Source: an uncultured Clostridia bacterium (lineage in GTDB: Bacteria; Bacillota; Clostridia; TANB77; CAG-508). From it: a DNA stretch of 64,000 nt. Within the stretch, counting starts at the first letter, position 1; every line of letters begins with the position of its first letter. The stretch lies in contig CANRPX010000003.1 of assembly GCA_947632605.1 (NCBI GenBank), positions 11,367 through 75,366 on the forward strand. The letters run 5' to 3'. The notes below the pieces were generated by a model. That model did not search any database, had not been told where the DNA came from, and was given only the letters and a program-made list of their open reading frames with translations. Shown in pieces: positions 34,456 to 62,646 of the stretch. The position numbers and the translations under genes were made by a program.

Positions 34456-36024
34456 TTATTCTTTACTTAAAATTCGAATTGCACTTTTTATTCCATCGAT
34501 TGCTGCTGTCATAATTCCACCGGCGTATCCTGCACCTTCTCCACAAGGATATATTCCTTTTATGTTTGCTTCACCATATTCATCTCGTAGAATTCTTATT
34601 GGTGATGAACTTCTAGTTTCAACTCCTGTTAAAATACTATCAGTATCTGAAAAACCTTTTATTTTTTTATCAAACTCTAGTATTCCTTCTTTAAGAGTAG
34701 TATTTACATATTCTGGTAATATTTCTTGAAGATTTGAAAAAGTAGTACCTGGCATATAACTTGGTTTTACTTTTCCTAATTTAGTAGTTTTTTTATTTTC
34801 TAAAAAATCTCCAACAGTTTGTATTGGTGCATAATAATTTTTTCCGCCTAATTCAAAAGCTTTTTGTTCTAATTCTTTTTGAAAATACATTCCTTCTAAT
34901 ACAAAATCACTTTTAAAATCTTTTGGTGTAACTTCAACTAAAATAGCACTATTTGCATTTTCTCCATCACGCAGAAATTTGCTCATTCCATTTGTTACTA
35001 TTTCTCCATCACTACTTGAAGAAGCAACAACTACACCACCTGGACACATACAAAAAGTATAACATGTTCTTTCTTTTCCGTGATATACAAGCTTATATTC
35101 TGCTGGTGGAAGTTTTAATTTTGTTTTTGTACCATATTGAGAAACATTTATCATTTCTTGTTTATGTTCGATTCTAAGTCCAACAGAGAAATTCTTTTTT
35201 TCCATTTTAATATTTTTCTCATATAATTTTTCAAAAGTTTCCCTTGCACTATGTCCTATCGCAAAAACTGCTGTATCTGTTTCAATTATTTTTTCTACAT
35301 CTTTATATTTTATTATTAAACTTGTAAGTCTATTATTTTGTATATTAAAATCTATTACTTTATGTTCAAATAAAAATTCTCCTCCTTTATCTATTATGTA
35401 ATTTCTCATATTTGATACTATTTTTATCAAATTATCTGTTCCAATATGAGGTTTATTTACATACATTATTTGTTTTGGTGCTCCAAAATTCACAAATTCA
35501 TGTAATACTTTTCTACAAAGAGGATCATTTGTACCAGTAGTTAATTTTCCATCTGAAAAAGTTCCAGCTCCGCCTTCTCCAAATTGAACATTAGAATTTT
35601 TATCTAAAATTCCAGTAGTAAAGAATTTTTCTACATCTTTTTTTCTATCTTCTACCTTTTTTCCTTGTTCAATTATAATCGGTTTTATTCCATTTTGAAC
35701 TAATATCAAAGCACAAAAAAGCCCAGCAGGACCCGCTCCAATTATTATAGGTTTTTGTATACTTTTTCTTTTAATATCTATATCTAGCTTAAAATTTTCT
35801 TTTTTTACTTCTTTTACATTTTTTAGTTTCTTTTCTCCAATGTACTCTATATCAATAGTGTAATTGTAATAAATGTTTTCTTTATTTCTTGCATCAATAG
35901 ATTTTTTAAAAATAATATAATCTTTAACATCTTTAAAATTTATTTTATATTTATCACATGCTTTTCTTAAAACATCTTCTTCTGACAAATCTTCATAAAT
36001 TTTTATATTTTCTAATCTATACAT
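34456..36024 (-). CDS. FAD-dependent protein, COG2509 (uncharacterized NAD(FAD)-utilizing dehydrogenase), native AT-rich copy
   Basis: Dinucleotide-binding GAGPAG and FSDGKL motifs, 522 aa. Confidence 0.8.
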   Translation of the reverse strand: MYRLENIKIYEDLSEEDVLRKACDKYKINFKDVKDYIIFKKSIDARNKENIYYNYTIDIEYIGEKKLKNVKEVKKENFKLDIDIKRKSIQKPIIIGAGPAGLFCALILVQNGIKPIIIEQGKKVEDRKKDVEKFFTTGILDKNSNVQFGEGGAGTFSDGKLTTGTNDPLCRKVLHEFVNFGAPKQIMYVNKPHIGTDNLIKIVSNMRNYIIDKGGEFLFEHKVIDFNIQNNRLTSLIIKYKDVEKIIETDTAVFAIGHSARETFEKLYEKNIKMEKKNFSVGLRIEHKQEMINVSQYGTKTKLKLPPAEYKLVYHGKERTCYTFCMCPGGVVVASSSSDGEIVTNGMSKFLRDGENANSAILVEVTPKDFKSDFVLEGMYFQKELEQKAFELGGKNYYAPIQTVGDFLENKKTTKLGKVKPSYMPGTTFSNLQEILPEYVNTTLKEGILEFDKKIKGFSDTDSILTGVETRSSSPIRILRDEYGEANIKGIYPCGEGAGYAGGIMTAAIDGIKSAIRILSKE

Positions 36025-43434: not shown

Positions 43435-43517
43435 GGTGCTGATGGTGGGACTCGAACCCACATGGTTTCCCGCAGCATTTTGAGTGCTGTGCGTATACCA
43501 ATTTCGCCACATCAGCA
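43435..43517 (-). tRNA. tRNA-Leu (anticodon CAA)
   Basis: The reverse complement folds as a class II tRNA: acceptor GCUGAUG/CAUCAGC, anticodon loop CUCAAAA, long variable arm, T-loop GGUUCGAGUCC and an encoded CCA. Confidence 0.9.
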
Positions 43518-56184: not shown

Positions 56185-56378
56185 TAGCTCTACAAAAAGT
56201 AGAGCTTATGAATAACCATTATTATATAATCATCATTCAAAACACTACTTATTGTGCTTTGACGGTATTAGCACCTAATTTAATAGGTTGCTGTGGAGTC
56301 ATTAAGCCGCTCTCTCGTCCACTCTTGATAACTTTTATTTACTTTTTCTATTTTACAACACAAAATGCATATTGTCAA
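56185..56378 (-). promoter_or_regulatory. metK leader: S-box (SAM-I)-like riboswitch with terminator, plus TTGACA-N17-TAAAAT promoter
   Basis: Minus-strand RNA contains UUAUCAAGAG, ...CAGCAACC, GGUGCUAAUACC and a P4-like hairpin. A terminator AGCUCUAC-UUUUUG-GUAGAGCU plus U7 (+ 56187..56208) sits just before the RBS. Promoter -35 is at 56378..56373 and -10 at 56355..56350. Aptamer conservation is only partial. Confidence 0.55.
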
Positions 56379-59132: not shown

Positions 59133-60053
59133 TTATTCTTTATAACTACTTCTTCTTATTATGGCTACTACTAAAATTAAAATTGCAATTCCTACTACCA
59201 CACCTAAAAATCTTCTATTTCCAACTGCTGGTAAATTACCAGATTTTGTTGTATCATCAGTATTATTATTTGTTTCATTTTGTGTATTATTTGCATTATT
59301 AACATTATTTTCTGTTTCGTGATTATCATCCCAAATAACAGTGTCTGCATAATCTTTTAATTTTGAAAAATCTGCTTCTGTATTTATCGTTAAAGTAGAA
59401 ATAAGTTTATATGAATTGTTTTCTTCTCTTTTTTCAACTGACCATATAAAAGAATTTATGTCATTAGAATCATCTATTAATTCATTATTTTTATATATTG
59501 AGTTAATATATTCAATAACTCTATTTGGAAAATCATTAACTTCTATTGTCTTTGCACCACCTGATACAAGTTCATTTCCATTTTCATCAATTATTGTATA
59601 TGATCTATCACTATTAAAATTACCTTTCCATTTACTATTTAAATGAGTTACTGAAAAATATGCCATTGAATCATTAAATTCTATTCCTTTTATATCTGCA
59701 ATAGCTACATATCCTAACATTGGTAATATTAAATTTTCTGTTTGCTTTTTATAATCATTATAAGACATTCCATTTTTTATAGGCATTTCCAATGAGAAAG
59801 TAACTTCTTCATCTAATGTGTATTTTAATGAATATTTTTCATTATTTTGCGTTGTTATAAGAATTGTATTATCATCTTTCACTTCAATTTTATAATTATT
59901 ACTATTATCTTGAGAGGATACAAATTTTTGAAAAGAACTTTTTAAATTTTCATTTGAAATTTCATTTTCTACTGCATAAGTGTTGAAAAAATTACTTAAT
60001 AATATAAAAAATATTATTATAGCAGTAGTTATTTTTAAACCAGTAGTTTTCAT
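59133..60053 (-). CDS. secreted surface protein with C-terminal sorting-signal-like architecture (LPAVG + hydrophobic + RRSSYKE)
   Basis: Signal peptide, an N-rich region and the tail LPAVGNRRFLGVVVGIAILILVVAIIRRSSYKE. Confidence 0.45.
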   Translation of the reverse strand: MKTTGLKITTAIIIFFILLSNFFNTYAVENEISNENLKSSFQKFVSSQDNSNNYKIEVKDDNTILITTQNNEKYSLKYTLDEEVTFSLEMPIKNGMSYNDYKKQTENLILPMLGYVAIADIKGIEFNDSMAYFSVTHLNSKWKGNFNSDRSYTIIDENGNELVSGGAKTIEVNDFPNRVIEYINSIYKNNELIDDSNDINSFIWSVEKREENNSYKLISTLTINTEADFSKLKDYADTVIWDDNHETENNVNNANNTQNETNNNTDDTTKSGNLPAVGNRRFLGVVVGIAILILVVAIIRRSSYKE

Positions 60054-60229
60054 ATAAACTTCTCCTTTCTAGAATTTTAAAGCTTTTTTATATATAAATG
60101 TATACAATTTGATTAGAGTATATCATATAATTTATTTTTTTGCTACTAATATTTTTTAAATGCAAAGAGAGAGATATTCTTTCGAATTCTCCCTCTTGCC
60201 CACACAGGAAGTCCTGTATGAAAAGACTA

Positions 60230-61645
60230 TTACCTGATCATACGTGCCAAGTAAACTCCAGAGGCCGAAGCCATCATGAGTCCACGAGTCAGGCCGCAAC
60301 CATCACCAATGGCATACAGTCCACTCACGCTGGTTTCCAGCGAAGTGCTGAGTTCGACTTTGTTAGAGTAGAACTTCAGCTCAGGACCATAGAGCAGATT
60401 GTCCGGATCTGCGAATCCAGGTGCAACCTTTTCCATCATTTCGATAAACCCAAGGATGTCCATGAGTTCACGATAAGGCATTGCCAGGCTGAGATCGCCA
60501 GCAGAAGCCGCCTTGAGTGTGGGAACAACCGAGTTCTTTGCCAGTTCTTCAGGCCATGTCCTCTTACCGATTCGGATATCTCCCAACCTCTGAACAATCA
60601 CGTTACCACCAGCCAAGGCATTCATGTTCCTTGCGATGTTCCGCGAATACTCCATCGGATTCGGCATATCCTTCAGGTTAAGAGAGACCAAAAGAGCCAA
60701 ATTCGTGTTGGTACTTTTGGTGTCTTTTAAGGCATGTCCGTTTACGAGCGTAATCCCTCCGTCATAAACCTCAGTGGTAACGAAACCGGATGGATTCTGG
60801 CAGAACGTTCTCACTTTGTCATTGTACGGTGCAGGTTTTGCTATGAATTTACCTTCGTAAAGGAGTTCGTTAATCTGAGCCATGACAGAGTCTTTCAGCT
60901 CATAACGAATACCTACGTCGATAACGCCAGATGCGGTCAAGATATCGTGCTCATTGCACAAATTCAAGAGCCAGTTTGCACCCACGCGTCCAATAGCCAA
61001 AACAACAGCGCCGGCCTCAACCGTCTTGGTTTCACCACCATTAGAGTGATAGATTACACCATAAACGGTATTGTCCTTGATGAGAAGATCCTGAACTTCG
61101 GTTTCGAACAGGAACTCCACTCCGTGTGCTTCGAGATACTTCTCAATCTTCTGGTACAAAACGTGTGCTTTGTCAGTACCAAGATGACGAATCGGAATGT
61201 TGATGAGATCCAGTCCAGCCGTCTCGGCAGTCTTTCGAATCAGGGAAATCTCTCCCGGATGATCGATGCCTTCAAGCTTTTCTGTTGCCCCAAACTCCAG
61301 ATACACCTTATCGGTGTAGTCGATCAGGCGCTTAGTGTTGTCAACGCCAGCGTACTTGTGCAGGTTGCCCCCAACGTAGAAGTCATCGTCCTCTTCGTTG
61401 TAGAGAGACAACTTACCATCGGAAAAGGCACCCGCCCCGGAAAAGCCGTTCATGATCTGGCAAAATGGCTTGCACTTAACACATTTTCCAGTAACAGCTG
61501 CCGGGCAGTTACGGTTTTCTACTCTCTTACCCCGTTCAATGAGCAGGATGCTCTTATCGGGATGGAATCGAACCATTTCAAGCGCAAAGAACGCACCTGC
61601 AGGTCCTCCTCCTACTACCACATAGTCAAATCTCTTCTCTTTCAC
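60230..61645 (-). CDS. FAD-dependent protein, COG2509 family, GC-rich (about 52%) xenolog of the native 34456..36024 gene
   Basis: VVGGGPAG and FSDGKL motifs with a GTG start (MKEKRFDY). Codon usage is GC3-rich, unlike the host. The + strand track ORFs 60140..60730 and 60734..61714 are antisense artifacts of high GC. Confidence 0.8.
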   Translation of the reverse strand: MKEKRFDYVVVGGGPAGAFFALEMVRFHPDKSILLIERGKRVENRNCPAAVTGKCVKCKPFCQIMNGFSGAGAFSDGKLSLYNEEDDDFYVGGNLHKYAGVDNTKRLIDYTDKVYLEFGATEKLEGIDHPGEISLIRKTAETAGLDLINIPIRHLGTDKAHVLYQKIEKYLEAHGVEFLFETEVQDLLIKDNTVYGVIYHSNGGETKTVEAGAVVLAIGRVGANWLLNLCNEHDILTASGVIDVGIRYELKDSVMAQINELLYEGKFIAKPAPYNDKVRTFCQNPSGFVTTEVYDGGITLVNGHALKDTKSTNTNLALLVSLNLKDMPNPMEYSRNIARNMNALAGGNVIVQRLGDIRIGKRTWPEELAKNSVVPTLKAASAGDLSLAMPYRELMDILGFIEMMEKVAPGFADPDNLLYGPELKFYSNKVELSTSLETSVSGLYAIGDGCGLTRGLMMASASGVYLARMIR

Positions 61646-61790
61646 TTTGGAAATGCTCCTTTCAATTGTCTTGCTGAGAAATTGGTTGACAGTTGCACTA
61701 AATCAAGACAATAGCCTCCTTCCTAAAGCACAAGTCTTGTGCTTTTTGTATCAGTGCAAAGTCAAAGACTTTACATAATTTTAGTATACA

Positions 61791-61836
61791 TCAAAAAGAA
61801 AAAAGTGTCAATTTCTAGTAAAAAAATTGACACTTC
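61791..61836 (-). terminator. rho-independent terminator of 61852..62646
   Basis: Perfect 11-bp inverted repeat AGTGTCAATTT...AAATTGACACT with a U-run on the minus strand. Confidence 0.6.
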
Positions 61837-61851
61837 TAATTTTAAATTAAT

Positions 61852-62646
61852 TTATTCTTCATTATCAAACATTAATTTTAATTTTTCACCTATTTCATAA
61901 CCTTTTTTATAAAAATCTTCTACACTCATCTTTAAATATCCACGTCTATAACAAAGTTCTAAGGTTACTGGTCCATTATAATTAGTTGATTTTAATTTCT
62001 TTGTTACATTTTCCCAATCTAATGTTCCGTCAAAAGGCAATAAATGTAAATCATCTGTTTTATCATTATCATGTAGATGTACAGCAAACACTTTATTTTT
62101 AAACTTATTAAAATCAAATTCATCATTAAAATGAACATGATAATGTCCTGCATCAAAACATATTCCCAAGTTTTCATTGTGAATATTATCTAGCACATAT
62201 TCTAAATACCCTTTTATTTTAGTATTTTCAAATGCAACTTTTATACCTAAAGACTCTGCATAATCTACAATTTCTTGTATTCTTTTTAATCCTACTTCAT
62301 TATATGGTGGTGCATCATATTTGCTAGTCAAATGCATTACAACAATTGGAACTCCATTTTCCTTCATGTCCTTTATATCATTTTTATATCTTTCTACTAG
62401 CTTATCACCATCACTTTTTTTACTCCAAATATCATTTATATTTTGATATCCTAAATGAGCAAAAATAATATTTAAACCTTTTTCTCTTATGTACTTTATC
62501 TGTTCTTCTTGTGAAGGATTAAAATCTTTATCATACCATTGTATAAAAACATTTTTAAAACCTGCTTTTTTTATTGCATCTATTGTTTCGAATGCATTAA
62601 CACTTTTATTACTATTATTTACAACAACTGCTATTTCTCTATTCAT
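61852..62646 (-). CDS. sugar phosphate isomerase/epimerase (xylose-isomerase-like TIM barrel, AP-endonuclease-2 fold)
   Basis: AFEN and HLHDN motifs, 264 aa. Confidence 0.7.
   Translation of the reverse strand: MNREIAVVVNNSNKSVNAFETIDAIKKAGFKNVFIQWYDKDFNPSQEEQIKYIREKGLNIIFAHLGYQNINDIWSKKSDGDKLVERYKNDIKDMKENGVPIVVMHLTSKYDAPPYNEVGLKRIQEIVDYAESLGIKVAFENTKIKGYLEYVLDNIHNENLGICFDAGHYHVHFNDEFDFNKFKNKVFAVHLHDNDKTDDLHLLPFDGTLDWENVTKKLKSTNYNGPVTLELCYRRGYLKMSVEDFYKKGYEIGEKLKLMFDNEE

Follow-up and report, generated by a model that had tools for sequence, protein, structure and literature searches.

Genes acquired by bacteria from other lineages start out compositionally foreign and drift towards the composition of their host, the process known as Lawrence-Ochman amelioration, and compositional outliers are routinely read as products of horizontal gene transfer (HGT). 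Composition can also be considered at the level of the transcript. Shine-Dalgarno (SD)-like 5' elements are documented mRNA stabilizers in Bacillus; the STAB-SD of Bacillus thuringiensis stabilizes cry3A mRNA because the bound 30S subunit blocks RNase J1 (PMC4113751). Here we describe a gene for a FAD-dependent oxidoreductase in a 64,000-nucleotide (nt) stretch of contig CANRPX010000003.1 (assembly GCA_947632605.1, positions 11,367 to 75,366) from an uncultured Clostridia bacterium. The whole stretch is referred to as the window, coordinates count from its first nucleotide, and the related loci compared with it carry L numbers. The gene (60230..61645, minus strand) is strongly enriched in G and C within a window of about 25% GC overall. 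The closest described structure is that of VP0956 from Vibrio parahaemolyticus (3NLC), a structural-genomics protein without known function.

The flavoenzyme gene is found at a conserved locus in several host species, its composition has persisted, its coding sequence is predicted to fold in excess of expectation, and its leader carries a covarying RNA hairpin. We put at about even the chance that the gene has long resided in these hosts by essentially vertical inheritance and that selection for a structured mRNA keeps its GC content high. Kept in place, without a visible donor and undecayed, it would provide a clean counter-example to the usual reading of compositional outliers.

A GC-rich transcription unit in an AT-rich genome

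The open reading frame (ORF) list places the flavoenzyme coding sequence (CDS) at 60230..61645 on the minus strand, where it specifies 471 amino acids (aa) from a GTG start and belongs to a clade, designated E, of a 4-Cys VP0956/COG2509-like family. Its GC content is 0.484, with 0.53 G+C (GC3) and 0.17 A (A3) at third codon positions, and first and second positions (GC1 and GC2) are also elevated. All but one of the other long ORFs in the window have GC3 values of 0.06–0.16 and A3 values of about 0.5. Among 1.4-kb segments the mean GC is 0.256 (sd 0.038); the maximum of 0.484 falls on the flavoenzyme CDS, and the runner-up elsewhere reaches 0.306. Measured per 100 nt, GC climbs from 0.17–0.25 to 0.38–0.55 within approximately 60155..61780, and the edges are sharp. 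The adjacent 306-aa gene and polA have a GC3 of 0.08.

The gene selectively shuns codons ending in A. TTA specifies only one of 50 leucines and ATA one of 28 isoleucines, no CTA or TCA codon is present, all six glutamines are encoded by CAG, and AAG accounts for 68% of the lysines. Because the gene has one TTA and neither CTA nor TCA, two antisense ORFs of 196 and 326 aa exist on the plus strand (60140..61714), lying in one frame, the exact codon-complement frame, with a single stop between them. An overlapping gene was considered here and rejected, as Pfam gave no hit for either ORF and the frame contains 8–30 breaks in most relatives. The antisense frame is open (1–5 stops) in L008, L098 and L192 and in the homologues L176 and L180 from GC-rich hosts, and its openness tracks GC3.

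A single-gene transcription unit is formed by a promoter, a leader of about 130 nt, the CDS and a terminator. The gene is monocistronic everywhere, and its context therefore yields no function. The sigma-70-type promoter (61783..61811, minus strand; TTGACA-17 nt-TATACT) matches the consensus at 11 of 12 positions, is AT-rich, and is conserved in two sibling species. The upstream AP-endonuclease-type gene ends in a terminator hairpin (61801..61837, minus strand) whose 3' arm contains the -35 box of this promoter, and the same layout is present in L004 and L008. The leader (61646..61776, minus strand; GC 0.374) includes the working Shine-Dalgarno sequence AGGAG at 61656..61660, 10 nt ahead of the GTG. 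The 3' untranslated region (60162..60217, minus strand) contains two hairpins, at 60217..60204 and 60199..60162, the latter a terminator-type stem whose position is conserved in L004 and L008. GC content is 0.387 in the 75-nt tail and 0.17–0.18 in intergenic DNA just outside the unit. The enrichment thus includes the untranslated leader and tail, ends at the promoter and past the terminator, and coincides with the transcript rather than with the ORF alone.

A preliminary description of this region had reported a block of about 52% GC at 60150..61745. The block is real and sharply bounded, but its GC over those positions is 0.472. The same description's account of a 471-aa FAD-binding protein with a wholly different codon bias, a long leader containing a hairpin, no mobility genes in the flanks, and plus-strand ORFs that are antisense artefacts agrees with the results obtained here.

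Genes that exceed the composition of their host form one clade, clade E, in a neighbour-joining tree. It comprises the gene in the window and its two sibling orthologues (the window trio) plus about 13 other lineages. Clade-E genes have GC3 values of 0.20–0.53 in hosts with GC3 of about 0.08–0.14, whereas the remaining close homologues (55–62% identity) have host-like values of 0.09–0.20; the window's genus is the extreme case. The clade is backed by an independent character, since all of its members have a hairpin leader of 110–140 nt and genes outside the clade have short leaders without the hairpin.

Excess folding of the coding sequence and a covarying leader hairpin

Folding was measured as the mean minimum free energy of 120-nt segments along the CDS and compared with synonymous shuffles that preserve both the protein and its codon usage. 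The gene in the window has a predicted energy of -33.8 kcal/mol per 120 nt against approximately -29.5 for the shuffles (z from -4.4 to -5.6). The median z for 17 clade-E genes is -3.63 (range -1.7 to -5.5), as compared with -1.25 (range +1.1 to -2.8) for 21 homologues outside the clade (Mann-Whitney p = 2e-6). Twenty-two other genes of the window have a mean z of -0.33 (sd 1.21, minimum -3.04), and the native AT-rich paralogue at 34456..36024 folds no more stably than its shuffles (z about 0 to +1). The excess persists under dinucleotide-preserving and 30-codon-block shuffles (z from -3.0 to -5.5). Homologues from GC-rich hosts lack it (z from -0.8 to -1.6), and the excess is therefore not a by-product of GC content. 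It is about twice as large on the sense strand as on the complement (-3.0 versus -1.6 kcal/mol; Wilcoxon p = 0.0007), an asymmetry indicative of RNA containing G-U pairs and not of DNA. The signal is one of general foldedness, independently re-created in lineages whose synonymous sites are mutually saturated.

The leader contains a perfect 10+10 hairpin, AAAGCACAAG-A-CTTGTGCTTT (61725..61745, minus strand), which is the window's copy of a hairpin located at the matching place in all clade-E leaders. An alignment of 17 of these leaders revealed covariation of eight base pairs: 84.6% of the cells are paired versus 76% after shuffling, and 19 cells carry double changes versus 5.1 expected, with both values reached in 0 of 500 shuffles. 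When the partner columns were slid, merely 27–49% of the hairpin cells paired. G-U pairs occur within the hairpin, which identifies it as an RNA structure and not a DNA operator. A search of Rfam 15 gave no match at E values up to 1 in 59900..62100, an Rfam scan of the whole window gave nothing at the FAD leader, and a scan of nine related loci gave no FAD-leader match at the gathering score. A covariance model built for the leader matches clade-E FAD leaders only, with no extra copies in the window or in loci outside the clade, and no regulon was found.

Directly after the hairpin lies an SD-like box, AGGAAGGAGG (61715..61724, minus strand), located 69 nt upstream of the GTG and resembling the STAB-SD; its counterparts in L004 and L008 are GGAAGGGGG and GGAAAGGGGG. 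In the window a UUG-AUU-UAG mini-frame begins 8 nt downstream of the box, with no equivalent in L004 or L008.

Much of the codon pattern might be attributed to selection at the level of the codon, acting either through strong expression with Watson-Crick-decoded codons or through host-rare codons tied to particular tRNAs or tRNA modifications. The gene has a near-consensus promoter, queH lies nearby in the window's genus, and the avoidance of A-ending codons is strong and selective, the shift being seen already in low-GC members of clade E. However, the enrichment extends over the untranslated leader and tail, and the excess folding survives when codon usage and dinucleotides are fixed. Moreover, infB, nusA and metK in the window have GC3 values of 0.07–0.10, which indicates that expression-linked bias in this host is not directed towards GC. 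We consider codon-level selection an unlikely source of the composition.

Conservation of the locus among AT-rich hosts

The GC of the gene was compared with that of its flanks among 80 species-representative genomes, 80 metagenome contigs and 10 viral contigs, together with 12 exact-protein look-ups. The exact protein is found on contigs of the same organism only. The closest other proteins, at 87% and 77% identity, are encoded at the same site in two AT-rich sibling species, where the order is a variable upstream region, the FAD gene, the orthologue of the 306-aa gene, polA and metK. These sibling copies have GC3 values of 0.39 and 0.53 against host values of 0.08–0.11. PolA is 88–89% and MetK 95–96% identical between the sibling species.

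Linkage to polA, metK or secA is retained in hosts whose PolA is just 58–67% identical. The order is metK-FAD-x-polA in L011/L012, polA linkage is retained in L093 and L102-104/156, and L192 has polA followed at a distance by FAD-CBS-AI2E-DUF1980-secA, resembling L091. L032, a homologue of ordinary composition from outside clade E, is also linked. FAD identity broadly parallels PolA identity, and together with the linkage in distant hosts this identifies the gene as an old resident of the polA-metK-secA neighbourhood among very AT-rich gut Clostridia. L091 and L192, which have the CBS-AI2E-DUF1980-secA synteny in common and SecA proteins that are 84% identical, differ in FAD GC3 (0.23 versus 0.44), so the degree of enrichment shifts fast between related lineages.

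After the sibling orthologues, the next relatives are 73% identical and are all encoded in AT-rich hosts. All relatives with at least 56% identity reside in DNA of 21–32% GC, and hosts of 41–54% GC contain homologues of only 48–52% identity. No GC-rich donor is present among the compared genomes and contigs. Plasmid and phage collections contain no DNA match to the flavoenzyme locus, and the scan of viral contigs gave homologues of at most 50% identity only. Within the window no mobility genes, tRNA target or flanking repeats surround the gene; a search for att-like direct or inverted repeats in the flanks found just short AT-rich matches at chance level.

Several observations concern the surroundings of the gene and its more distant homologues. 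Some strains of a sibling species carry a mobile element directly upstream of the FAD gene (L005 1..7600, compared with L004), containing HTH (helix-turn-helix) and sigma-70-like genes, DUF6870, two large serine recombinases and RhuM. The upstream neighbour differs among all three species, being the AP-endonuclease-type gene in the window, and the DNA next to the FAD gene is thus variable and prone to insertions. One homologue of 722 aa (L010 8001..10169, P0004), which is much extended at its C-terminus, has a GC3 of 0.45 versus 0.32 for its neighbours in a host of 37% GC. Homologues of about 50% identity with GC3 of 0.92 (L180-L183, 10..1383) are located at the extreme ends of IMG/VR 'viral' contigs of about 54% GC, and are probably the host flank of predicted prophages, not phage genes.

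The variable region bears on a second alternative, repeated allelic replacement, either by recombination among congeners or by re-import from an unsampled, moderately GC-rich reservoir, possibly assisted by GC-biased gene conversion. The locus adjoins a region prone to elements, and the FAD tree joins L001 with L004 (nonsynonymous divergence, dN, 0.10 versus 0.18–0.20), whereas the host genes give nearly a star tree. Yet the approximately 16 distinct clade-E contexts all have flanks of 0.21–0.31 GC, with no GC-rich context among them. Conversion tracts would not be expected to end at a promoter and a terminator, leaving the 306-aa gene and polA at a GC3 of 0.08, and replacement does not predict excess folding specific to the sense strand. 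We judge replacement to be decidedly unlikely.

Persistence of composition at synonymous sites

Four-fold degenerate sites of the three syntenic orthologues were compared with those of polA, metK and a 597-aa gene. GC at these sites (GC4) is about 0.05 in the host genes and 0.30–0.45 in the FAD genes of the trio. Correlations between species in the state of a site, strong (S, G or C) or weak (W, A or T), are 0.20, 0.11 and 0.0 for host genes and 0.20, 0.13 and -0.03 for the FAD gene. Mismatches between A and T among W sites amount to 0.29–0.34 in host genes and 0.27–0.41 in the FAD gene. The FAD gene and the host genes have been diverging for similar lengths of time, and the synonymous states of the FAD gene are nearly randomized, with GC4 unfallen. 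Where both species have G or C, 35–50% of the sites are mismatched (G versus C) in comparisons with L008, and the shared S sites are therefore mostly not retained ancestral bases. In the deeper syntenic pairs L091–L192, L001–L093 and L011–L102, the sites of both host genes and FAD gene are saturated, and GC4 is 0.13–0.40 in the FAD gene versus 0.02–0.09.

A model in which sites decay under the host substitution process, with neither the branch lengths nor the root composition fixed, gave a log likelihood (lnL) of -640.0 and needs a root GC4 of 0.87. A stationary model at the gene's own composition gave -604.4; when host exchangeabilities were used and only three branch lengths were free, it gave -605.9. 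The difference of about 65 in the Akaike information criterion favours the stationary model, and amelioration under the host substitution process is rejected. High GC is a standing property of clade E, maintained despite complete synonymous turnover. Within-species copies, compared in order to polarize changes from W to S and from S to W, differ by 0–1 bases. Polarization by three-taxon parsimony was set aside, as the bias expected of parsimony is seen in the host genes and similar counts can arise from pure decay.

These results bear on a further alternative, in which the ancestor of the clade-E hosts acquired the gene once, long ago, from a GC-rich donor, and its copies have since descended vertically with neutral amelioration that is slow and still unfinished. 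Clade E is monophyletic, its GC3 values span 0.20–0.53 as if its members were at differing stages of decay, and GC1 and GC2 are raised too. However, host four-fold sites have turned over, largely within the trio and completely in the deeper pairs, and GC4 of the gene still stands at 0.13–0.45. The decay model, with the root composition that it needs, is worse by 35 lnL units, and G-to-C mismatches of 0.35–0.50 are found at shared S sites in comparisons with L008. Neither the excess folding nor its strand asymmetry is accounted for. We regard ancient transfer with neutral decay as very unlikely. The gene may have entered at the base of the clade by a transfer of great age, but such an event would not account for the persisting GC.

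A recent one-off transfer of a xenologue from a donor of about 50% GC as a naked cassette would fit the extreme compositional contrast, the sharp boundaries, the upstream flank that differs between siblings and the serine-recombinase element that one strain set carries there, but this extremely improbable reading is already contradicted by the shared position of the gene in three species whose synonymous divergence is saturated, by synteny with polA, metK or secA that reaches more distant hosts, by nearest relatives that are orthologues followed by proteins of 73% identity, all in AT-rich hosts, and by the lack of mobility genes, att-like repeats and plasmid or phage matches.

The preliminary description had called the gene a xenologue. 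Read as a one-off transfer from a GC-rich donor, that claim is not supported: siblings have the same locus and composition, synteny reaches distant AT-rich hosts, no donor was found, and decay is rejected. Relatives share the GC-rich copy, with similar composition and at the same locus, although the two paralogues of the window do not cluster together (26% identity). The label of HGT is at best a statement on the remote past.

Proposed selection on the transcript

Selection on the sense transcript for strong intramolecular pairing would be the most likely cause of the unusual composition. In a genome of 25% GC, strong pairing would need enrichment of G and C, together with G and U on the sense strand, and a need for G-C and G-U helices would also account for the raised GC1 and GC2. 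The 5' hairpin, the SD-like box in the window's genus and the 3' stem could together produce an unusually stable, nuclease-resistant mRNA, whose longevity would then be the benefit. In its full form, the proposal that an armoured sense mRNA with a clade-specific hairpin keeps the gene GC-rich across species, genera and complete synonymous turnover has, in our estimate, somewhat less than an even chance of being correct.

Several points weigh against selection for a structured mRNA. The need of this enzyme alone for such an mRNA has no explanation. RNAalifold applied to two over-folded CDS segments from the 17 clade-E genes found no conserved helices; selection would have to target general foldedness, a property difficult to demonstrate from sequence, and the folding energies are predictions for hosts that are uncultured. 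The SD-like box is well matched in 6 of 17 clade-E leaders, those of the window's genus and three other lineages, and is degenerate elsewhere. The likelihood test relied on a simple substitution model, a star tree and no more than 154 four-fold sites, and the closeness of L001 and L004 in the FAD tree hints at some gene flow between congeners. Finally, a second GC-elevated gene at 50966..51340 shows that compositional outliers in the window need not share one cause.

If folding of the mRNA is indeed selected, selection at the level of the transcript can override a very strong AT mutational bias over an entire gene, amino-acid usage included. An outlier that any HGT detector would flag would then be a transcript adaptation, and the locus would lend itself, as a natural system, to the study of selection on global mRNA structure in bacteria. 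The composition also marks an uncharacterized, highly conserved 4-Cys flavoenzyme of gut Clostridia as one that is specially treated by the cells, and the leader adds a new covarying RNA motif tied to this flavoenzyme.

The flavoenzyme and its native paralogue

The sequence GGGPAG at residues 12–17 represents the GxGxxG Rossmann motif for FAD binding (Pyr_redox_2, 49.7 bits versus a cut-off of 26.1). Residues 275–422 match a partial PF21688 profile (positions 43-194 of 197) at 33.5 bits, with a cut-off of 27. The AlphaFold2 model has a predicted local distance difference test score (pLDDT) of 89.2. Using this model, the top Foldseek match is 3NLC (E = 9.8e-26; query template-modelling (TM) score, TMq, 0.71); the next matches have TM scores of at most 0.52, and the other matches are generic two-domain flavoenzymes. 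3NLC is also the only sequence match in the PDB (E = 8e-25). The protein is a VP0956/COG2509-like flavoprotein, a family that has no member with known function; a literature search on COG2509 found no function, and protein-cluster look-ups gave no product name.

The native paralogue (34456..36024, minus strand) is a canonical COG2509/PF21688 protein of 522 aa encoded by an AT-rich gene with a GC3 of 0.084. The two proteins had been described as members of the same family, and their relationship is real and colinear over the whole length (E = 1e-29), but it is one of distant paralogy, with 26% identity and PF21688 scores of 33.5 versus 270 bits. The flavoenzyme resembles VP0956 and COG2509/PF21688 proteins in its two-domain FAD fold, its GxGxxG sequence and its (F)SDGKL motif, and differs from VP0956 and from the native paralogue in that identity is just 23–26% and the N-terminal part of approximately 90–105 residues is missing. 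It begins 8 residues ahead of the Rossmann motif, and alignments start at residue 93 of the native paralogue and residue 111 of 3NLC. Because the N-terminal extension is absent, we file the flavoenzyme as a separate subfamily.

A CX7CX2CX3C insert (C47-x7-C55-x2-C58-x3-C62; codons at 61460..61507, minus strand) is invariant in the subfamily and absent from the native paralogue and 3NLC. Two further cysteines are also invariant. The pattern of invariant cysteines suggests a metal or iron-sulfur site. Mean column identity is 71% across 37 sequences.

Other features of the window

The second GC-elevated gene is ORF 50966..51340 on the plus strand, within a unit at 50850..51400 that has a GC content of 0.38–0.40 over about 550 nt and a GC3 of 0.42. 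Its product has 124 aa with one hydrophobic segment and no Pfam hit. The unit has its own promoter of the extended -10 type, a strong terminator and, in its leader, a hairpin with a T-run behind it; it is located on the strand opposite to most genes and matches no Rfam family. Additional RNA features of the window are an S-adenosylmethionine (SAM) riboswitch ahead of metK (56227..56334, minus strand), a T-box leader (49085..49286, minus strand) ahead of the gene at 47194..48975, a class A RNase P RNA (33470..33825, minus strand), tRNA-Thr(CGU) (50665..50740, plus strand) and another tRNA (43437..43516, minus strand).

Comparison with known systems

As in acquired genes undergoing amelioration, a single gene here has base composition and codon usage far from those of its genome. 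The flavoenzyme gene differs from such genes in being conserved in place across species and beyond, in having no composition-matched donor, and in lacking the decay that the host process predicts.

The leader of clade E is similar to cis-regulatory leader RNAs such as riboswitches, T-boxes and protein-binding leaders in that it combines compensatory changes and conserved flanking bases with association to one gene family. Unlike the leader RNAs known to Rfam, it has no match there, and only one short helix is supported.

Parallels also exist with the Bacillus mRNA stabilizers, namely the cry3A STAB-SD, 5' stem-loops and the terminators known as 'retroregulators' (PMC4113751). Likeness to these elements is seen in the long leader with a stem-loop near its 5' end, in the AGGAAGGAGG box, which lies 69 nt from the start codon and is an unlikely initiation site for the main ORF, and in the stable 3' stem. 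Stabilization is putative in the case of the flavoenzyme transcript, and the SD-like box is not universal in clade E. The flavoenzyme gene further differs from the Bacillus stabilizers in that its entire coding region is itself GC-enriched and over-folded.

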